From the NCBI GenBank assembly GCA_963743885.1, contig CAVURJ010000001.1, positions 279,488-343,487 of the forward strand: a DNA stretch of 64,000 bases, read 5' to 3'. A program made the position numbers and the translations under genes. The notes under the pieces are model-generated. The model worked only from the letters and a program-made list of their open reading frames with translations, was not told the DNA's origin and ran no database searches. Below are positions 4,343 to 63,529 of this stretch, piece by piece (position 1 is the first letter of the stretch; every line of letters starts with the position of its first letter). This DNA comes from Candidatus Moraniibacteriota bacterium. GTDB taxonomy: Bacteria; Patescibacteriota; Minisyncoccia; Moranbacterales; UBA1568.

Positions 4343-4560
4343 TAGAAATAAAATCCGAAATCCGAAATTCTAAACACGAAACAAATCCTAATCTTGAAAT
4401 CCAAAACGAAAAACAAGGGTTTGAAATTTCAGTTTTTTGATTTTGAATTTGTTTAGAAATTAGGAATTAGATATTAGAAATTTCAAAAGCGATTGTTTTC
4501 GATAGGATTGTTTGATATCGATAGTGCAGAAGAAAAGAAAAACGGATATAAAAAGCCAAA
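4343..4560. repeat. AT-rich low-complexity intergenic repeat tract (aaatccgaaat / gattttgaattt k-mers)
   Basis: Shares k-mers with tracts at 15186-15326, 43545-43684, 48595-48692 and 48880-48920. Confidence 0.5.
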
Positions 4561-4563
4561 GAT

Positions 4564-7107
4564 ATGTTGTGGAAGAGATTCGCATCGTATGATGCGGAAA
4601 GCTCGCTTGCTGAGCTCCAATCGTCGGTCGATGGGCTGTCGGAGGAATCCGTCCGGAGTCGGTTTTTGACGTTTGGAAAGAATGAGCTGGGCGGTAAGAA
4701 GTCATTCATCTACGAGGCCTTGCGTCGCCGCTTCAAGTCGTCGTTCCTCTACCTCTTGCTCGCTGCTGCCGTACTGGCGCTCTTTCTTGGGGATCGCCTT
4801 GATGCTCTCTTGATCGCCTTGTTCGTGGCAATCAATATTGGTCTCGAGACGTATCAGGAATATCGCTCTGAGCGATCGGCAGAGCTGCTCAAGAAATATC
4901 TCATCGTACGGGTGCGTGTCAGGCGTGATGGCCGTATGGTGATGACGGAAGGGAAGAACATCGTCCCGGGCGATATTGTGCTCGTGGAACCAGGTGACCG
5001 TCTGCCAGCTGATATCCGTTTTATCAAATCTGACGGCATCGAGGTGGATGAGAGCGTTATGACCGGTGAGTCCGTCGCTGTCGCGAAGACCGCCGATTCG
5101 CCGGACGTGCCACCGACAGAGATGTATGAGGCGGTGAATATCGGCTTTGCGGGGACCATCGTGACAGCGGGGCGTGGCGAGGGAGTGGTTTTTGCGACGG
5201 GCAAGGAGATGGCGCTTGGCGATATTGTTACGCTGACCGAGGGGACCGACCGTGAGACGGTTTTTGAGAAGGGTATGGCCCGGTTTAGCCGCTTTCTGGT
5301 GCGTCTGGTACTCCTGACGCTCACGATTATCTTTCTTGCGAATATCTTCATCAAGGGTGATGGGGCCGATCATATCGAACTCCTCGTCTTCTCGATCGCG
5401 CTTGCGGTCTCGGTGGTACCGGAGGCACTGCCGCTCGTCATGACGGTCTCCTTGTCACGCGGAGCTGTTCGTCTGGCGCAGAAGAAGGTCGTCGTGAAAC
5501 GACTCTCGGCTATTGAGGATCTCGGGAGTATCGAAGTGCTCTGTACCGACAAGACAGGGACGCTGACAGAAAACATGCTTTCCGTCGTTGATGTGCTCGC
5601 GCCCGATCGCGCAGCTTGTCTCACGGCAGCGTTTCAGGCTTCTCTTGAGGTGCCTGAGACGCGTGCTCATCTGCATGACGCTTTTGATTTGGCGCTCTTT
5701 CAGTCCTTGTCGGCCGATGAGCGGATGGTGGCGCTCGAGAAAGAGCGGATTGGGAGTATCCCGTTTGATCCGGAGCGTCGGCGCAACAGTGTGTTTGTCC
5801 AAGGCGGAAATGAACGCGCCATTATCGTGCGCGGAGCACCGGAAGAGATATTCCGTCTCTCGCATGGCATGGACCGGTATACCAGGATGCAGGCGACAGA
5901 ATTCGTAGCTGCTGCTGGGCGAAAGGGGCAGCGTGTCATCGCAGTTGCTTCAAGGCAGCTGCATACCGATGAGAAATGTACGGCGTATAGTGAGCAGAAT
6001 CTTGCGTTTCTCGGATTGATTGCTTTTTCTGATACGCTCAAGAAGACGGCCAAGCGGACCATTGCTGAGGCGCGCTCGCTCAACGTCGCGGTCAAGATTT
6101 TGACCGGTGATAGCCGCGAGGTGGCTGGCTCTGTCGGCTACGCCATCGGGCTGATTGATGACCCGGAGAAGGTGTTCACGGGTAAGGAGCTCGATGAGAT
6201 GCCGTACGAGGAGCGTCGCGACGCGGTTTTTTCTGGCTCTGTCTTTGCTCGTGTCTCGCCGCAGCAGAAGCACGATATCATCAAGCTGCTCCAGGAGCGC
6301 TACGGAGTCGGATTTCTTGGGGAGGGGATCAACGATGCGCCGGCGCTCAAGCTGGCGGATGTCGCTATCGTAGTGGATAGTGCTTCCGATATCGCTCGTG
6401 AGACGGCGGATGTCGTGCTGCTCCAAAAGAGCCTTGAGGCGCTCATCGATGGGATCCGGGAGGGGCGTTCTATCTTTGCCAATATTCTCAAGTATCTCAA
6501 GATCACGCTGACATCCAATTTTGGCAATTTCTATTCCGTCGCGCTCGCATCGCTCCTTCTGCCATTCGTGCCGCTTTTGCCGGTGCAGATTCTTCTCCTC
6601 AATCTTCTTTCGGATTTTCCGATGATTGCTATCGCGACCGACACCGTGGACAAGGCCGAGCTTGACCGACCGAAGAGCTACCAGATGCACACAGTGATCT
6701 ACCTGACGACGCTTTTTGGTGTCGTGAGCTCAGTCTTCGACTTTATGCTCTTTGGATATTTCTACCGCATTTCTCCGGAGGCACTCCAGACGGCTTGGTT
6801 TATGCTTTCTGTTATCACCGAGGTTGTGCTCATCTTTTCGCTTCGCACCAGCTTCGCCTTCTTCAAGGCCCGTCGTCCGTCCTTTGCGCTTATGTTCTTT
6901 TCATTCACGGCGCTCCTCATCGCGGTGGTGCTGCCGTTTACGTCGTTGGGCCAGGTGCTCCACTTTGCGCGCCTCGAGACGAGCTCACTCATCTTTATCG
7001 GCTGTTTGGCTGCCGGCTATTTCATGGTGACTGAGCTGGTCAAGCACATGTACGAGCGGCACCTGCGCCAGTCGCGCCGGGACGTTGCCGATCCGGTTGC
7101 CGCGTGA
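4564..7107 (+). CDS. Cation-transporting P-type ATPase (P2/P3-type, Mg2+/Ca2+-like)
   Basis: DKTGTLT phosphorylation motif, TGDS, GEGINDAPALKLADV hinge motif, multiple TM segments. Confidence 0.85.
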   Translation: MLWKRFASYDAESSLAELQSSVDGLSEESVRSRFLTFGKNELGGKKSFIYEALRRRFKSSFLYLLLAAAVLALFLGDRLDALLIALFVAINIGLETYQEYRSERSAELLKKYLIVRVRVRRDGRMVMTEGKNIVPGDIVLVEPGDRLPADIRFIKSDGIEVDESVMTGESVAVAKTADSPDVPPTEMYEAVNIGFAGTIVTAGRGEGVVFATGKEMALGDIVTLTEGTDRETVFEKGMARFSRFLVRLVLLTLTIIFLANIFIKGDGADHIELLVFSIALAVSVVPEALPLVMTVSLSRGAVRLAQKKVVVKRLSAIEDLGSIEVLCTDKTGTLTENMLSVVDVLAPDRAACLTAAFQASLEVPETRAHLHDAFDLALFQSLSADERMVALEKERIGSIPFDPERRRNSVFVQGGNERAIIVRGAPEEIFRLSHGMDRYTRMQATEFVAAAGRKGQRVIAVASRQLHTDEKCTAYSEQNLAFLGLIAFSDTLKKTAKRTIAEARSLNVAVKILTGDSREVAGSVGYAIGLIDDPEKVFTGKELDEMPYEERRDAVFSGSVFARVSPQQKHDIIKLLQERYGVGFLGEGINDAPALKLADVAIVVDSASDIARETADVVLLQKSLEALIDGIREGRSIFANILKYLKITLTSNFGNFYSVALASLLLPFVPLLPVQILLLNLLSDFPMIAIATDTVDKAELDRPKSYQMHTVIYLTTLFGVVSSVFDFMLFGYFYRISPEALQTAWFMLSVITEVVLIFSLRTSFAFFKARRPSFALMFFSFTALLIAVVLPFTSLGQVLHFARLETSSLIFIGCLAAGYFMVTELVKHMYERHLRQSRRDVADPVAA

Positions 7108-15185: not shown

Positions 15186-15326
15186 ATTGAAGAAATTCAA
15201 AATTTAAAATCACAAGCTCCAAATAAATTCAAAAACTATAATTTTAAAAATAAGATGCCCTTAAGATACTCTGAGTTTTGATATTGCAATTTATTTGATA
15301 TTTGTAATTTTGAATTTGGTGCTTTT
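15186..15326. repeat. AT-rich intergenic repeat (shares ~130 bp of motifs with 43545-43684)
   Basis: cacaagctccaaataaattcaaaa ... ttttgaatttggtgctttt versus tacaagctccaaataaacttcaaa ... ttttgaatttggtgctttc. Confidence 0.55.
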
Positions 15327-25629: not shown

Positions 25630-25665
25630 CTCTGCACAATATACAGCGGTCGTGGTATATTATGC
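25630..25665. promoter_or_regulatory. Palindromic operator-like site overlapping the -10 of the PaaX-like gene
   Basis: TGCACAATATAC-agcggtcgtg-GTATATTATGCA has inverted 12-mers matching 11/12. A near-identical copy is at 26390-26430. Confidence 0.5.
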
Positions 25666-25690
25666 ATAGGTGAATAGTGATACAAAAAAT

Positions 25691-26296
25691 ATGAAAAGAA
25701 AGAAAATTACAGAGAGTAAAAAGGAGGATGCGGAGAAGAAGCGGGAGCGTCGTGCAGATATCCAGCGCGTACTTCTCGGGGTCGTGGGTGCAGCGGGACT
25801 GCTCAGCCTCGTATTACTGGCGCCCAATGCTGTCCAGGTGCTCAAGCTATTCAAGAGGAGGAATCCGCGGTATCGTTCTCCTCGCTATATCAACGGTGTG
25901 GCCGGAAAGCTGCAAAAGAAAGGTTGGCTTCGGGTTGAGAGGCGTGGTGGCAAATCGTTTTTGCGGCTGACGGAAAAGGGTGAATGGGAGCTTCTGAAAT
26001 ACAAGTTGCAGGAAAAGACGCTTCAGAAGAAAAAATGGGACGGAAAGTGGCGATTGGTTATCTTTGACATCAAAGAATCGAAACGGCTGCTTCGTGATCG
26101 GATCCGAACGGATATCGTCACGTTCGGATTCGTGCGTTTGCAGGATAGTGTATGGGTCTATCCGCATGATTGTGAAGATCTCATCGTGCTATTGAAGGCT
26201 CACTGTAAGATCGGCAAAGAAGTTTTGTATGTGATATCCGAGAAGATTGAGAATGACGGTTGGCTTAAGAAAAAGTTCAGTCTTGTTTCAGAATAA
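25691..26296 (+). CDS. PaaX-family-like transcriptional regulator (wHTH plus PaaX_C-like domain)
   Basis: WDGKWRLVIFDIKESKRLLRDRIRTDIVTFGFVRLQDSVWVYPHD matches PaaX_C (WDGRWHLV..R..LR..L.W.GFG.L.DGLWVSP). wHTH-like LQKKGWLRVERRGGKSFLRLTEKG precedes it. Confidence 0.5.
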   Translation: MKRKKITESKKEDAEKKRERRADIQRVLLGVVGAAGLLSLVLLAPNAVQVLKLFKRRNPRYRSPRYINGVAGKLQKKGWLRVERRGGKSFLRLTEKGEWELLKYKLQEKTLQKKKWDGKWRLVIFDIKESKRLLRDRIRTDIVTFGFVRLQDSVWVYPHDCEDLIVLLKAHCKIGKEVLYVISEKIENDGWLKKKFSLVSE

Positions 26297-26389
26297 TAGA
26301 ATGCTCAGCACTCAACGGTCGTTGTAGAGTATGCAGCTGTTATGGCGACCAGGATAGAAAGTTAGTGAAAAAGTATGGTGGTGTGGTTG

Positions 26390-26430
26390 CTCTGCATAAT
26401 ACTTAGCGGTCGTGGTATGTTATGCAGTGG
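26390..26430. promoter_or_regulatory. Second copy of the palindromic operator-like site (with a half-site at 26318-26340)
   Basis: ctctgcataatacttaGCGGTCGTGGTATgTTATGCAgtggtg is near-identical to ctctgcacaatatacaGCGGTCGTGGTATaTTATGCAtaggtg upstream of the regulator. Confidence 0.5.
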
Positions 26431-26502
26431 TGTGGAGAATGGGAGAGTGGAAAAGAAACGGGAGGGAGAGAGGAAAATGGGAATTGTAGAGGGGCACGGT
26501 TT

Positions 26503-39004: not shown

Positions 39005-39628
39005 ATGGCTGCTCAAAAAGTGGTCGTCGATGGGTCGACTGTCTCGGCTCGTCAGATGAAGGATTTCTGGCGTCAGGTCGACGACGGATCGATTACGGGC
39101 GAGATACTCCAAGCAGTTCTTGAACATCGTAACCCGTTCGAGAAAGTGATCAACAATGCGATGTTCACCGTCACCTCCGATGGTCGCACCGGCGAAGAGT
39201 TCATTCGTGATTTCAAGCGGAACGACTACCGCGTCGGTGACTATGCATCGGATGTGATGCGGAAGCCCGCCTTCGTCGCCACGAACGACAAGACGTACCG
39301 ACTTGGCCTCATCAAGGGAGAAGAATTCTCCGATGCCGAGCGGTCGACGAAGAATATCTGTGCTGAAGCAGCTCGTCGAGGTTGGCTCACGCCACCGGCG
39401 GAAGTCGCGCCGCTCCTTCGGGAGACGGTCTCCGATGAAGAGATCAAGCATCTCGGTCTGTGGTGGCTCGTCGTTATGCACGAACCGATTATCGATTCCG
39501 ATGGCGGTGCGCGCTTGCTCGGCCTCCACCGCCACGGTGGTGGCCAGTGGCTCGACACGCGCTACGGCAAGCCAGGCCGTCGGTGGGGTCGTGAGGATGG
39601 GTTCCTGTTCCTTCTCCCGCAAGATTAG
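39005..39628 (+). CDS. Hypothetical protein (C-terminal ~40 aa duplicated downstream)
   Basis: 207 aa ORF with AGGAGAG SD. No family recognised. Confidence 0.55.
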   Translation: MAAQKVVVDGSTVSARQMKDFWRQVDDGSITGEILQAVLEHRNPFEKVINNAMFTVTSDGRTGEEFIRDFKRNDYRVGDYASDVMRKPAFVATNDKTYRLGLIKGEEFSDAERSTKNICAEAARRGWLTPPAEVAPLLRETVSDEEIKHLGLWWLVVMHEPIIDSDGGARLLGLHRHGGGQWLDTRYGKPGRRWGREDGFLFLLPQD

Positions 39629-39921: not shown

Positions 39922-40098
39922 TTGGTGGGTGGCGAATCGAAGGGTGGTGGCAAAGATGGAAAGCCGTACGTTTCCGATGGCGATGCGAACTTGCTCAACC
40001 TCAACCGCAACGATGATGGCCAGTGGCTCGACACGAACTACGACAAGCCAGACAATCGGTGGAATCGTGAGAATGGGTTCCTGTTCCTTCTCCCGCAA
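39922..40098 (+). pseudogene. Partial duplicate of the 3' end of the gene at 39005
   Basis: DNA 40015-40098 is ~85% identical to 39540-39622 (…GQWLDT.Y.KP..RW.RE.GFLFLLPQ). It has only a TTG start and no N-terminal domain. Confidence 0.5.
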
Positions 40099-43532: not shown

Positions 43533-43544
43533 ATTTAAATTCAA

Positions 43545-43684
43545 AACTCAAAATTACAAGCTCCAAATAAACTTCAAATTTCAAATACAAAACCTAGAAC
43601 GTTTTGAATGTTTGGATTTTGATATTGTGATTTATTTGGAAATTGGGATTTTGAATTTGGTGCTTTCGGAGAGTATTTCATGTG
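43545..43684. repeat. AT-rich intergenic repeat, paralogous to 15186-15326
   Basis: Shared blocks tacaagctccaaataaacttcaaa and gattttgaatttggtgcttt. Confidence 0.55.
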
Positions 43685-47540: not shown

Positions 47541-47562
47541 TGGATATTCTGTAAGTTTTTCC

Positions 47563-47712
47563 GTTCCACGGTCTCCGTCGAACATCCCTGACTCGCTCTG
47601 CCGAACAGGGGGCTGTCCGCTCTGAGGCCCGAAACGGTCCCGAGCGTCACGCCCGACCGTTGCCGGCTCGCTCATCACGGATGTGGCCGCCGTCATCCGA
47701 AGGAAGGAAAAA
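47563..47712. repeat. Copy P of a ~150 bp intergenic repeat (second copy Q at 54307-54456)
   Basis: ttccacggtctccgtcgaacatccctgactcgctctgccgaacagggggctg... versus ttccacgatcttcgtcgaacatttctgactcgctctgtcgaacggggagctg... are ~80% identical over ~140 nt. Confidence 0.7.
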
Positions 47713-48520: not shown

Positions 48521-48692
48521 TATCGGCTGTTTTTCAGTGCGATTGCCAGGCCATCGAGATGTCTTTTGTGGGACATGGCGGTGGCCTGGTTGTGTTTTTG
48601 AAATCCAAAAATCAAAATCACAAATCCCAAACAAGTTCCAATGACCGAAATTCAAAATCCGAAACGTTTTGAGTTTTGATGGTTGGGATTTA

Positions 48693-48870
48693 TTACCAAG
48701 TGTAGTGAGTGAAACGAGAGTTTACTCTCGTTTCCGAACGGAGCGCAGGTAAAATCGGGTTGAATACCTCGCGGCTTGCCCGCCTAGCCGGCGAGGCTGG
48801 CCGCAGAATAAAACGAACATCAGTTCGTTTTTAGGGTCCAGGGCTTGCCCTGGGGTGAATACCCGTTATA
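48693..48870 (+). repeat. Copy Y of the ~170 bp structured repeat family (with a 21 nt internal insert)
   Basis: Aligns with 58263-58423 and with the reverse complement of 1382-1540. Hairpins with CUUG loops and compensatory stem changes. Confidence 0.75.
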
Positions 48871-48920
48871 ATTTATTTGTGAATTGTGATTTTGAATTTT
48901 GTATTTTTAAGGAAAAAGAT

Positions 48921-50199: not shown

Positions 50200-50338
50200 G
50201 GATTTCGGCCGGGTTCCGGCCGGTTTTTGACCGCTTGGGCGGTTTTTTCTTTTGTTGGGCTCTTTGCAGGGAAGGGCTTGGGAGGGTATAATGATAGCCA
50301 CAGTGTACCGTCACGCATCCAACGGATTTTTTTCTTTT

Positions 50339-50524
50339 GGTAACCCTCTCAAATCTCACCGCCTGTTATGACTCAAAAAGAGCTTGTCCGAAAAAACCAT
50401 CTCCGTTCCGGCTGCAAAATCCGAAAAGCTTGTCGGGTTATCACTGATAGCCCTTTGCGTTTTTCGACTTTTTCGCTCGAAACGGAGATGGTTTTTTCTG
50501 GACATGAGATTTGAGAGAGTTACC
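50339..50524 (+). repeat. 186 bp element with ~20 bp terminal inverted repeats, directly upstream of ftsA (copy 1)
   Basis: Termini ggtaaccctctcaaatctca ... tgagatttgagagagttacc. Internal inverted repeat aaaaccatctccgtt / aacggagatggtttt. 85-90% identical to 51790-51975. Confidence 0.8.
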
Positions 50525-50528
50525 ACCT

Positions 50529-51788
50529 ATGGCCAAAGGGCATTATCACATCGGTCTGGATATCGGATCAGCCAACACCCGTGCCGTCATCGCGCAAGAG
50601 ATTGCCGATGATGAGCTTTTGCGTGTCGTTGGTGTCGGTACCGCGCCTTCGTCCGGGATGCGTCGCGGCGCGGTCGTTGATGCTGAAGCAGTCGCTAAGG
50701 TCTGCAATGAAGTGCTCGAGCATGCGGAGCGCATGGCGGGACATCCGGCTGAGAGCGTGACCGTGAGCGTGACTGGGGCCGAGATCGCCTGTCAGGATGC
50801 GCTTGGTGTCGTCGCGGTTGGCCGCGCCGATGGCGAGGTGACCGAAGACGATATGTCGCGTGCCTTCGAGGAAGTGCAGGCGCGGCTCGTCCTGCCGCTC
50901 AATCAGGAGATCATCCATGTCGTGCCGAAGGATTATCGGCTCGATGACCAGAAGAATATCAAGGATCCGCTCGGCATGCGCGGTGTCCGGCTCGAGATGA
51001 ACGCGTTCGTCGTGACAGGGAGCGCTTCGCACCTCAAGAATCTTTCACGCAGTCTGGAACAGGCCGGCACGTCACCGGATAGCTTCGTTGTTGAGCCGCT
51101 CGCTTGCGCGGAATCAGTGCTCCATCGCAAGCAGAAGGAGCTTGGGACAGCGATCATCAATATCGGCGGTGCCACGACATCACTTGCGGTATATGAGGAT
51201 GGCGATTTGCTCCATCTGGCGGTTTTCCCGGTCGGTGGCGACCACATCACGAACGATATCGCCATCGGACTCCGCACGTCGATCGAGGTAGCGGAAGCGG
51301 TCAAGCTGCAGTATGGCAGTGCGATCTCTGATGATATCGCTAAGAAGGAAGAGATCGACCTCAACCTCTTTGATACGCACGAGGAAGGATCTGTTTCCCG
51401 TCGACACGTCGCGGAGATCATCGAGGCGCGCCTCGAGGAGATTTTCCTCTTCGTCAATGCGTCGCTCAAGGAAATCGGCCGCGAAGGTTTGCTTCCGGGC
51501 GGTGTCATCCTGACGGGTGGGGGTGCACTTCTGCCAGGTATCGTTGAGCTCGCGAAGGATACGCTCAGACTGCCGGCGCAGATCGGATATCCGAAGCCAC
51601 TGGGTGGCATCCTGGACCAGGTGGACAGCCCGTCATTCGCGACCGTGATTGGTCTTGTACTGCTCGCAAGAAATACCCATGTCTCTTCGAAAGGATTCTC
51701 GTCCCAGAAGGTCTGGAACAAGATGCCAGAGGGGATGCAGGGTGCGATCGAGAAGCTGAAGCACTGGTCAAAACGGTTCCTGCCGTGA
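50529..51788 (+). CDS. ftsA: Cell division protein FtsA
   Basis: Actin-like ATPase. HIGLDIGSANTRAVIA phosphate-1 motif and FtsA-specific domain architecture. Start set at ATG 50529, outside the repeat. Confidence 0.85.
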   Translation: MAKGHYHIGLDIGSANTRAVIAQEIADDELLRVVGVGTAPSSGMRRGAVVDAEAVAKVCNEVLEHAERMAGHPAESVTVSVTGAEIACQDALGVVAVGRADGEVTEDDMSRAFEEVQARLVLPLNQEIIHVVPKDYRLDDQKNIKDPLGMRGVRLEMNAFVVTGSASHLKNLSRSLEQAGTSPDSFVVEPLACAESVLHRKQKELGTAIINIGGATTSLAVYEDGDLLHLAVFPVGGDHITNDIAIGLRTSIEVAEAVKLQYGSAISDDIAKKEEIDLNLFDTHEEGSVSRRHVAEIIEARLEEIFLFVNASLKEIGREGLLPGGVILTGGGALLPGIVELAKDTLRLPAQIGYPKPLGGILDQVDSPSFATVIGLVLLARNTHVSSKGFSSQKVWNKMPEGMQGAIEKLKHWSKRFLP

Positions 51789-51789
51789 G

Positions 51790-51975
51790 TAACTCTCTCA
51801 AAATCTCACCGCCAGTTACAAGTCGAAGAATGCTTGTCTGTAAAAATCACTCCCGTTCCGGCTGCAAAATCCGAAAAGCTTGTCGGGTTATTGCTAATAG
51901 CCCTTCGCACTTTTCGACTTTTTCGCTCGAAACGTGAATGATTTTTTCTAGACATGAGATTTTGAGAGAGTTACC
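51790..51975 (+). repeat. 186 bp element with terminal inverted repeats (copy 2), between ftsA and ftsZ
   Basis: gtaactctctcaaaatctca ... tgagattttgagagagttacc. Same orientation and length as copy 1. Confidence 0.8.
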
Positions 51976-52184
51976 GAGCGGATTTTTCCAAACACAGAAA
52001 CAGACACTTTTCCCTTATCAGAGCCTCGTTTCTTGACGAGAGGACTTTTTCGCTGCCATTGACATCGTATCTCCGCGTATGATACAGTGGACAGTCAAGA
52101 AGGCCTGGAGCTTTGTCAGAGCTTCGCGGTGGATGTAGAATAGCTGTACGGCATTTTTTTGTAACCAACCTTAAGGGGACACAT

Positions 52185-53414
52185 ATGGCGGAGATCAAGC
52201 CTGATATCGAGACGTTTGCGAAGATCAAGGTGGTCGGTGTCGGCGGATCAGGCGGCAACGGCGTAGCGCGGATGGTGGATGCCAAGATCAAGGGCGTCGA
52301 GTTCGTCGCTATCAACACGGATGCGCAGGCACTCCACAATTCGAAGGCACAGGAGAAGATCCATATCGGTAAGAACCTGACGAAGGGTCTTGGTGCTGGT
52401 ATGAATCCGGAGATCGGACGTCAGGCAGCCGAAGAGAATCGCGATGAGATCCAGGAAGTACTGAAGGGTGCTGATATGGTATTCGTCACCTGCGGTCTCG
52501 GTGGTGGTACTGGATCTGGTGCGGCTCCGATCGTTGCAGAGACAGCCAAGGAGCTCGGCGCACTCACCGTTGGTGTCGTGACCAAGCCGTTCGCATTTGA
52601 AGGTTCGCAGCGTCGCGCGATCGCCGAAGAAGCGCTCGAGAATCTCAAGGACCGCGTCGACACGCTCATCACTATTCCGAACGACAAACTGCTTTCCATC
52701 ATCGATCGCAAGACAACCCTCGTGAATGCCTTCCGCATCGTCGATGATGTGCTCCGCCAGGGCGTGCAGGGCATCTCTGACCTCATCACTAAGCCGGGCA
52801 TCGTCAATGTCGACTTTGCTGACGTGCGTGCCATCATGGAAGATAGCGGCAGCGCTCTTATGGGCATCGGCATCGCAGCTGGTGAGAACCGTGCAGTCGA
52901 GGCGGCCAAGGCGGCCATCAACAGCCCGCTTCTTGAGCTTTCGATCGATGGTGCGAAGGGTGTCCTCTTCAATATCTCCGGTTCGAGCGACCTCACGATG
53001 CTTGAGATCAACGAAGCGGCCAATATCATCACTGAGAATATCGATCCAAATGCCAAGGTTATCTTCGGTGCTGTGACCGACGACCAGATCCGCAAGGGCG
53101 AGGTCCAGATCACAGTTGTCGCGACTGGTTTCGACCTGCCGCGCGCGAAGGAGCCGGTCGGGCTCATCAACCGCTCGACGACGGTCGCACACACGCGGAC
53201 AGTCTCGACCCCGATGGCTGATGAGATGATTCGCGATGAGGAGATCTTCGAGGAGACAATCGCTTTCCCGTCGAGGAAGATGGAACAGCCGGCGATGATC
53301 ATCGAGGAGAAGATCCAGCCGCGCACCGCCGCTTCGCGTGTCGAGACAAAGGAGCTCGCCGAAGAGGACGATCTCGAGATTCCGGCGTTCATCCGCCGCA
53401 AGATGAAGAAGTAA
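52185..53414 (+). CDS. ftsZ: Cell division protein FtsZ
   Basis: GGGTGSG tubulin signature, NTDAQAL, T7 loop. AAGGGGAC SD before ATG 52185. Confidence 0.95.
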
Positions 53415-54251: not shown

Positions 54252-54306
54252 TTTTTAGCATTTACATTCGTTTGTTTTTTACACTCCTCCTCCTTTTCAT
54301 TTTTTC

Positions 54307-54456
54307 TTCCACGATCTTCGTCGAACATTTCTGACTCGCTCTGTCGAACGGGGAGCTGTTTGTTCTGAGGGCTGAAACAGCCCCGAACGCCACGCTCGAC
54401 CGTTACCGACTCGCTCATCAGAAATGTTACCGCCGAGAGACCGGAGGAAGAAAAAA
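54307..54456. repeat. Copy Q of the ~150 bp intergenic repeat
   Basis: See 47563-47712. Confidence 0.7.
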
Positions 54457-58210: not shown

Positions 58211-58262
58211 CCGCAACAGCGGCGACAAGAAAGGGGCTTTCCACAAGAGAGCTCCTTTTCAA

Positions 58263-58423
58263 TTACCAAGCGGAGTGAGTGAAACGAAAACTTGTTTTCG
58301 TTTCCGAACGGAGCGCTGGTAAAATCGGGTCAGATACCCCGCGTCTTGCCGCGGAACAGGACAATCCGACGAAAGGAGGATTGTACGGGGTGCGGGGCTT
58401 GCCCCGCGGTGAATACCCGTTAT
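58263..58423 (+). repeat. Copy Z of the ~170 bp structured repeat family, upstream of tRNA-Pro(GGG)
   Basis: ttaccaagcggagtgagtgaaacgaaaacttgttttcgtttccgaacggagcgctggtaaaatcgggtcagatacc...gggcttgccccgcggtgaatacccgttat. Confidence 0.75.
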
Positions 58424-58483
58424 TTTTTGAAAACCATGAGCATTGTCGAATGGCCGGAATTTTGCTACGGTTAGAGATGTTTT

Positions 58484-63399: not shown

Positions 63400-63529
63400 A
63401 AAAAGTTTAAAATCATGTTCACGAGTTAACGAGTTAACGGGTTGTTTTTTCAAAGAGCAACCTGTTTACTTTTCCGTTTTAAACGCGTTAACACGTGAAC
63501 CCGTTAACTGATAAATATTCAATAATCTT

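Follow-up and report, generated by a model that had tools for sequence, protein, structure and literature searches.

The 64,000-nucleotide stretch of DNA analysed here (contig CAVURJ010000001.1 of a Candidatus Moraniibacteriota bacterium), called the window below, carries two copies of a small palindromic element on either side of the division gene ftsA, the second of them, copy 2, being inserted between ftsA and ftsZ. This element is very probably a non-coding, non-autonomous DNA transposon, of the kind called MITEs (miniature inverted-repeat transposable elements), and it belongs to a previously unnamed family of Candidatus Moranbacteria. Prokaryotic MITEs have been reviewed as elements of less than 500 bp with terminal inverted repeats (TIRs), mostly intergenic and giving stable stem-loop transcripts (PMC10969869). 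The element resembles them in its length of 186 nt, lack of coding capacity, TIRs, dispersed copies, presence/absence polymorphism and stem-loop transcript, as well as in a target duplication that is seen at the level of the family only.

Copy 2 follows the ftsA stop codon, precedes the ftsZ promoter and is bounded by perfect TIRs (GTAACTCTCTCAAAATCTCA / TGAGATTTTGAGAGAGTTAC, 20/20), with two matches in the window against none expected from 100 shuffles. The initial annotation had already described it as the second copy of a TIR-bounded element of 186 bp located at 51790-51975, a description that holds for the length and for the repeats, the coordinates being off by one (51789-51974). It had also given both copies the same length and orientation and an identity of 85-90%; they do lie on the same strand, 1.45 kb apart, with 85% identity, and copy 1 measures 184 nt. 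The distance of 1-2 nt that it placed between the ftsA stop codon and the element is in fact 0 nt, as copy 2 directly abuts the TGA. No third copy was detected in the window by nhmmer, blastn or the family covariance model, and a marginal covariance-model match at 63426-63507 proved to be an unrelated GTTAAC-rich palindrome.

Folded alone, copy 2 forms a hairpin of -67.7 kcal/mol on the + strand (z -8.2) and of -81.5 kcal/mol on the - strand (z -9.6), and none of 200 shuffles folded equally well. The two terminal repeats pair with each other as the 20-bp closing stem of this hairpin, and are followed on the left arm only by a mostly unpaired segment (51809-51834), whose sequence and length are poorly conserved among family copies; because of this one-sided segment, the element has an orientation. 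Each copy folds as a self-contained unit within the ftsA leader or the ftsA-ftsZ spacer, and in the centroid structure the start codon of ftsA stays free of pairing. The partly compensatory changes reported earlier for the internal stem were recovered when the stem 51845-51857 / 51931-51943 of copy 2 was compared by hand with its counterpart in copy 1 (50395-50407 / 50481-50493, a perfect 13 bp). Five pairs differ: three are changed on both sides and still paired (from copy 1 to copy 2, C-G to T-A, C-G to T-A and T-A to C-G), and two are changed on one side in copy 2 and broken on the + strand, one of these being a G-U pair on the - strand.

Two copies in 64 kb, 1.45 kb apart around a single gene, might also be produced without any mobility, by the local duplication of a regulatory palindrome, by chance or by an assembly artefact. 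However, the copies differ at 15% of their positions, which speaks against a duplication created by assembly, and both the TIRs and the fold are far beyond what shuffled sequences give. An independent short-read (Logan) contig carrying this exact ftsA has both of its ends inside the elements, in the 39-nt block that is identical in copies 1 and 2; because that block is common to the two, these ends are evidence for those two copies and not for more. Above all, at least nine other assemblies carry members of the family, and do so at unrelated loci. An immobile origin is refuted by these copies in other genomes, and we leave it practically no chance.

The ftsA neighbourhoods of eleven other lineages were compared with the window; the sequences used for comparison are identified by L numbers. 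The close lineages (L034/L035, L036/L037, L038-L040 and L041) have an FtsA in the same 90% protein cluster as that of the window, with 93-97% identity for the protein and 84-85% for the ftsA DNA in the two cases measured. In the more distant ones (L001, L002, L004, L042, L043 and L045), FtsA identity is 75-80%; counted against the four close lineages, the distant set is of seven, with 69-80% FtsA identity. The gene order ybeY-dgkA-ftsA-ftsZ-nrdR-comEC is kept, whole or in part, in all eleven. In none of the eleven is either site occupied: no element is present at the site of copy 2 in L001, L002, L004, L034, L036, L037, L038, L041, L042, L043 or L045, nor at the site of copy 1 in L034-L037, L038, L041, L001, L002 or L004. 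The ftsA-ftsZ spacer of the window spans 396 nt, i.e., 210 nt once the 186 nt of the element are removed, and that of the close relatives spans 207-219 nt. The reverse polymorphism is found as well, L036 and L038 carrying insertions that have no counterpart in the window. Copies 1 and 2 are thus insertions, polymorphic with respect to close relatives. The initial annotation implied a small element of mobile or repeated nature, a reading upheld by this empty site in eleven lineages and by relatives at unrelated sites with TNA duplications.

The wider family was recovered by a terminal-repeat scan that covered one genome per species and required an exact match to 19-20 nt of the TIR. Full-length relatives of 182-187 nt were found in other Moranbacteria assemblies, a range that reaches 220 nt when the member downstream of gyrB in L045 is included. 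They are located between nrdD and nrdG (L019), between nrdR and comEC (L010), upstream of yidC (L015) and next to hypothetical genes (L005, L009, L014, L017), in both orientations relative to the flanking genes. Three assemblies (JBAQNF01, CAZBFG01 and CAYRWQ01) carry 2-3 copies each, and such numbers are lower bounds, given that an exact TIR was needed and that short-read assemblies lose repeats. The 19-20-nt ends are near-identical in all aligned full-length members except one, namely L038, whose tips have diverged; this member (L038-L040, ends GAGCCCGTTCAAAATCTTA) is inserted between the dgkA terminator and the ftsA promoter. Another member lies in opposite orientation inside the 3' end of ybeY (L036 5244-5427, equal to L037 1318-1501), where the ybeY call runs 66 nt into the element and gives a protein of 168 aa, compared with 150-156 aa in relatives; within the element itself a spurious ORF is annotated, of 60 aa in L036 and 61 aa in L037. 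Derived forms also occur, with an apex-deleted variant of 102 nt at two loci of one genome (L016 and L018) and solo ends in L020 and L021. Scans of metagenome and viral contigs with the TIR yielded almost no further members, and searches of phage and plasmid collections gave no meaningful similarity to the element.

Several observations on individual matches can be added. The solo right end in L020 (1405-1436) contains an ATG within the terminal repeat (CTCATGTC) that opens an ORF starting with MSNCKKGFSIIELI, which resembles a type IV pilin leader, so that the remnant may supply a start codon. In metagenome contig L031 (966-1067), the 102-nt variant links the left-hand flank found in L016 to the right-hand flank found in L018, either by assembly chimerism or as the product of recombination between two copies. 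Six sequences (L013, L014, L016, L018, L019 and L021) are labelled 'uncultured Bdellovibrionales', and a spread across phyla was considered; the RlmN of L021, which holds a solo end only, is about 80% identical to Moranbacteria proteins, so that at least that label looks wrong. L015, for its part, is labelled 'Peribacteria'. TIR matches outside Moranbacteria (L006-L008, L011, L012, L022, L023-L030, L032 and L033) look like chance, being located in or next to unrelated sequence, as at the start of an L27 gene in L012. One contig, L026, shows at 6909-6947 a 39-nt mini-palindrome like two back-to-back terminal repeats (AGTTTCTCTCTCATTTCTC TCT GAGATTTGAGAGAGTTAC), either a remnant or chance.

The flanks of the members indicate how they were inserted. 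When the element is written GTAAC...GTTAC, the adjacent 3 bp favour T-N-A on both sides, and they are identical on the two sides in 5 of 13 copies: TTA (L015), TAA (L005), TGA (L010), TAA (L016) and TCA (L036). The L036 insertion splits GC-TGA-AGG near the end of ybeY, and its empty site is seen in the window and in L034. At L010 (7466-7652), removal of the element and of one TGA gives ...CTT GAG TGA, which encodes the ...LE-stop end of NrdR found in every relative; in the occupied state, the G+TAA of the element completes the last Glu codon and supplies the stop, so that NrdR still ends in ...LE. Since removing a single TGA restores the site, this is a true duplication. Three-base duplications of TWA, TNA or ANT type mark the IS5 / PIF-Harbinger superfamily (PMC4482050), and the length and consensus of the duplication suggest that the transposase would be of an IS5 / PIF-Harbinger-like type. 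A TA duplication as in IS630/Tc1, with ACTCTC..GAGAGT inserted into GTAC, was considered, prompted by the invariance of GTA/TAC in the nine GTAAC-type copies; it was rejected, as NrdR of L010 would then gain a tyrosine (...LEY-stop) and an absolute G..C target would be needed.

The most likely course of events is the following. The TIRs of about 20 bp would be recognised by a DDE transposase whose gene lies elsewhere and which would mobilise the element in trans, with a staggered cut of 3 bp at TNA whose 3 bp would be duplicated on insertion; mobilisation in trans is what we infer. In this lineage, one copy inserted into the leader of ftsA, 5 nt ahead of the start codon, and the other exactly at the ftsA stop, and the FtsA protein is unchanged by either insertion. 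As TAA and TGA fit TNA and the element starts with G-TAA, an insertion at the end of a gene would tend to keep or replace the stop codon, which would help to explain the copies that abut ftsA in the window and nrdR in L010. The read-in of ybeY in L036 is a less benign outcome.

Several findings weigh against this interpretation or at least limit it. The evidence for the IS5-type assignment is indirect, being the length and consensus of the duplication. No transposase was found among 40 ORFs screened with Pfam in the window, which represents about a tenth of the source contig, nor was a transposase gene found beside the TIR matches of the genome, metagenome and viral scans, for which an exact TIR was required. 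The flanks of the two window copies do not match, copy 2 having TGA/CGA (right side 51975-51977, 2/3 match) and copy 1 TTG/CAC, and the CGAG beside copy 2 looks ancestral by comparison with L036. Shuffling the right flanks of 11 copies gives p ~0.05 for the flank matches. Finally, the apparent copy number is low, with 2 in the 64-kb window and 2-3 per other assembly. As regards the flanks, the two restored sites (L036 and L010) are stronger evidence than the shuffle, and the direct repeats of prokaryotic MITEs are known to decay with age (PMC10969869).

The structure of the element is conserved beyond the two window copies. In an alignment of nine copies, 95-96% of the cells pair and 14-15 pairs are changed on both sides, compared with a mean of 6.2 in shuffles, of which 0 of 500 reach the observed value, and with at most 5 in slid controls; when the alignment is enlarged to eleven copies, the compensated pairs number 21 of 60. 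These changes are unevenly distributed along the hairpin. In the nine GTAAC-type copies, 13 of the 19 pairs of the TIR helix are invariant and none is compensated, while the inner helices change in sequence and keep their pairing (14 pairs compensated). A conserved TIR around a compensated core is the pattern that would be expected of a protein-binding end and a structural core. Where the ends do differ, both have changed together, as in L036 (GTATT../..AATAC), L045 (GTATC../..GATAC) and L038 (GAGCCCGTTC../..GAACGGGCTC). In DNA palindromes, compensatory change may also result from template switching between the arms, without selection.

The two strands are not equivalent. In 8 of 9 copies it is the reverse strand that folds more stably; its G-U(T) pairs number 51, against 24 on the other strand, its consensus energy is -67.7 versus -50.9 kcal/mol, and this better-folding strand is antisense to ftsA at the window locus. 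Host transcription crosses the family copies about equally in both directions, so that the orientation of host messages does not explain the asymmetry, which is a lead and not evidence of an RNA function and which, because the copies share ancestry, does not count independently for each copy. Together with the fact that the whole element is one long hairpin with compensatory changes, this asymmetry would be in line with movement as single-stranded DNA by an HUH (Y1) transposase, as for repetitive extragenic palindromes (REP) in the REPIN/RAYT system or for IS200/IS605-like elements, TNA being then a recognition or cleavage motif. Yet the ends are long, true, non-palindromic inverted repeats, unlike those of REP units and IS200/IS605, which are subterminal hairpins without TIRs. 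A mere cleavage motif would also fit poorly with a trinucleotide that 5 copies show on either flank with an unchanged middle base, and with the restored end of nrdR, and no Y1 transposase is present among the window ORFs screened. We therefore regard this route as very improbable.

The MITE interpretation leaves room for a role acquired after insertion. Copy 1 is certainly transcribed in the ftsA message, since the conserved ftsA promoter precedes it and the start codon follows it, and copy 2 would be transcribed as well if transcription passes the ftsA stop. Once transcribed, the element would fold as a self-contained hairpin with a 20-bp closing stem, and this self-contained folding may be why it is tolerated so near coding sequence; an effect of the hairpin on the processing or stability of the mRNA would be speculation. 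In addition to being a MITE, the element may have been co-opted, i.e., it would have arrived by transposition and been kept as a cis-acting RNA hairpin for the expression of ftsA and ftsZ, the closing stems serving possibly as RNase III sites, as stabilisers of the 3' end of the ftsA message or as barriers to read-through into ftsZ. Such a role would agree with the sense orientation of both copies in the ftsA transcription unit, with their folding alone around an unpaired start codon, with the compensated pairs, with the independent entry of hairpin elements into the ftsA cluster in at least four other lineages (L036, L038 and L010, as well as L045 with a different repeat) and with the known ability of Correia and ERIC elements to alter mRNA processing (PMC10969869). 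On the contrary, eleven relatives manage without these copies, a conserved promoter of its own serves ftsZ downstream of copy 2, the family is found beside unrelated genes in either orientation, the better-folding and more G-U-rich strand is the one antisense to ftsA, and template switching can account for compensatory change as well. Nor does termination inside the element, which the initial annotation had envisaged, receive support: no intrinsic terminator was flagged inside copy 2, the apical hairpin of copy 1 (50435-50453) being flagged as terminator-like. On balance co-option appears unlikely. A similarly low probability is given to the broader idea that the hairpin is more than a passenger: its compensated full-length pairing and the G-U(T) excess of one strand would then reflect a single-stranded intermediate or an RNA role, and the repeated, independent entry of hairpin elements near ftsA in several Moranbacteria lineages would stem from targeting to the division-gene cluster or from selection there, where cleavage of the message by RNase III could for example adjust the FtsA:FtsZ ratio.

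Other identities were examined and rejected. A hidden small protein is ruled out, as no reading frame is kept across copies, each frame being interrupted by stops in most of them and shifted by indels from one to another, and as the two internal ORFs (50 and 49 aa) match no Pfam family. No sigma-70-consensus promoter was found inside the window copies on either strand. A known RNA family was not supported by Rfam 15, where four tRNAs are the only matches of the window to pass the gathering threshold; under permissive settings, the best matches of the element were to miRNA-precursor models, with 26-31 bits for thresholds of 100-249, as expected of generic hairpins. The attC sites of integrons have RYYYAAC ... 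GTTRRRY core sites, measure 57-141 bp and stand in cassette arrays beside an integrase. The ends of the element (GAGTAAC ... GTTACCG) fail at the Y and R positions, its length is 186 nt, the synteny around ftsA is kept without elements, and no integrase was found among the window ORFs screened. Finally, repeat and IS families of Escherichia coli (ERIC, REP, IS5) were excluded by blastn with word size 11 against 5,426 complete genomes, none giving a match at E <= 0.01.

The coordinates of the element and of the surrounding host features are collected in Table 1.

Table 1. Features of the two element copies and of the ftsA-ftsZ locus, in window coordinates.
Feature	Position	Strand	Remarks
ftsA promoter TTTGCA-N18-TATAAT	50263..50292	+	Host feature upstream of copy 1, kept where relatives lack the element
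Copy 1 of the element	50340..50523	+	184 nt; within the ftsA 5' leader, 5 nt short of the ATG
Block of 39 nt identical in copies 1 and 2	50403-50441 and 51853-51891	+	
ftsA coding sequence	50529..51788	+	Pfam FtsA/SHS2_FTSA; 419 aa; between the two copies
ftsA stop codon TGA	51786..51788	+	Abuts copy 2; possible left copy of a TNA duplication
Copy 2 of the element	51789..51974	+	186 nt; covariance-model match of 168 bits
Copy 2, left TIR GTAACTCTCTCAAAATCTCA	51789..51808	+	
Copy 2, left-arm-only segment	51809..51834	+	About 26 nt, variable, mostly unpaired; from folds and alignment
Copy 2, inner long hairpin with interrupted stem	51835..51954	+	From folds and covariation counts
Copy 2, apical hairpin GGGTTAT..ATAGCCC	51885-51903	+	Part of the inner hairpin
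Copy 2, right TIR TGAGATTTTGAGAGAGTTAC	51955..51974	+	
Weak terminator-like hairpin (52025-52040, 6 pairs) and T run	52025..52050	+	Host feature
ftsZ promoter TTGACA-N18-TACAGT, TG before the -10	52059..52088	+	Kept in all relatives aligned
ftsZ coding sequence	52185..53414	+	Pfam Tubulin/FtsZ_C

Most of the closest homologues of FtsA share its length, so that the start codon can be fixed at the ATG of position 50529, and the named homologues belong nearly all to Candidatus Moranbacteria (Moraniibacteriota), a lineage of the candidate phyla radiation (CPR). As the ftsA promoter is upstream of copy 1 and conserved, this copy is part of the 5' leader of ftsA. Before ftsZ, the terminator-like hairpin and TTGACA promoter noted earlier are both present, and are to be separated from the element: the hairpin CTCGTTTCATGACGAG (CTCGTTTCWTGACGAG) also exists in L034, L036 and L037, all without the element, and since it and the ftsZ promoter are found in element-free close relatives, they are features of the host spacer and not parts of the element.

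The family has four insertions at no more than about 0.8 kb from ftsA (two of the window and one each of L036 and L038), and the L010 member is located between nrdR and comEC, genes that are downstream of ftsZ in relatives. More generally, independent insertions of hairpin repeats of this or other families recur in the ybeY-dgkA-ftsA-ftsZ-nrdR-comEC cluster in five lineages (window, L036, L038, L010 and L045), a count in which a hot spot is not separable from ascertainment, as sampling was centred on ftsA and the L045 member of the family is 8 kb away. Upstream of dgkA in L038 (47-3101), the usual yqeY-ybeY segment is replaced by an RVT_1 reverse-transcriptase gene and a gene with a VWA domain.

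Other repeats are present as well. A second repeat is present at 48692-48874 and 58262-58428 of the window, with 84-85% identity, and also between ftsA and ftsZ in L045 (11340-11470). Two of its hairpins change in a compensatory manner (GAAACGAGAGTTTACTCTCGTTTC vs GAAACGAAAACTTGTTTTCGTTTC, and GGGTCCAGGGCTTGCCCTGGGG vs GGGTGCGGGGCTTGCCCCGCGG), and it ends in a TTGCCC..TATAAT-like promoter, one copy being upstream of yqeY and the other upstream of tRNA-Pro; with no match in Rfam, it could be a mobile promoter-bearing module or an undescribed RNA motif. An AT-rich family of inverted repeats of about 130 nt, with arms AAATTCAAAAT... / ...ATTTTGAATTT, occurs at 4351-4484, 15193-15325, 43537-43666 and 48601-48907; its fold is weak (z -2.2), and the arms of the fourth copy, about 215 nt apart, enclose the repeat at 48692-48874. 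A GC-rich repeat of 136 nt, 80% identical between its copies, is located after hisS (47557-47692) and between nrdR and comEC (54300-54435), the spacer that also received the MITE-family insertion of L010. Direct repeats include a 130-nt pair with 85% identity (39493-39622 / 39969-40098) and three copies of 43 nt (25630-25672 / 26299-26341 / 26390-26432) that flank a PaaX-like gene (25670-26296). Long-hairpin elements of other kinds occupy spacers in L045 (1638-1774), L043 (12600-12794) and L038 (7608-7775); two of these three share ..GTGCTCGAC.CCGTA..TACGGCTTACT.., and the third folds at -94.5 kcal/mol. These long-hairpin elements point to more than one family of hairpin repeats living side by side in the small genomes of Moranbacteria.

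MITEs are well known in bacteria, and mobile DNA is usually regarded as scarce in CPR genomes, which are smaller than 1 Mb. No paper describing MITEs in the candidate phyla radiation was found in the library searched. The present family indicates that these genomes still carry active or recently active non-autonomous transposons, whose insertions may fall only a few bases from essential division genes and leave these undamaged. In practice, the copies break short-read assemblies at their insertion points, the family provides a marker for strain-level variation in Moranbacteria, and annotators have a reason not to call the ORFs of 50-60 aa inside the element. It is an ordinary kind of element, which does not bear on any long-standing open question.

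Among known systems, REPINs mobilised by RAYT share with the element a long hairpin whose ends are conserved and whose middle varies, compensatory pairing and a low to moderate copy number in spacers. They differ in having no target duplication and short palindromic ends recognised as single-stranded DNA, whereas the element has non-palindromic TIRs of 20 bp and a 3-bp duplication; judged from these sequence features, it would be neither a REPIN nor of the IS200/IS605 type. The elements ERIC (enterobacteria) and Correia/NEMIS (Neisseria), prokaryotic MITEs located in transcribed spacers and folding over their full length into hairpins, work in a similar way: they too are small (about 100-200 bp) and non-coding, have TIRs, vary in presence between relatives, stand beside gene ends and are co-transcribed (PMC10969869). 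Their transcripts likewise form stable stem-loops, and the TIR stem is a plausible RNase III substrate (PMC10969869). Nevertheless, no sequence similarity to them was found for the element, the E. coli search covering ERIC, and their copy number is of tens to hundreds whereas 2-3 copies of the element were seen per genome. The window copies are without a sigma-70-like promoter, and the host is a CPR bacterium. The duplication differs as well, being of 3 bp at TNA for the element and TA for Correia. In the IS5/PIF-Harbinger (PHIS) superfamily, no transposase of which was linked to the element family, the ends of L038 beginning with GAGCCCGTTC may resemble those of the IS1031/IS427 group, which is a lead only. 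PHIS duplications are TWA, C|TNA|G or ANT (PMC4482050), and it is with this superfamily and its Tourist-like MITEs that the element shares a 3-bp T..A duplication, TIRs of about 20 bp, a small size and AT-containing targets.

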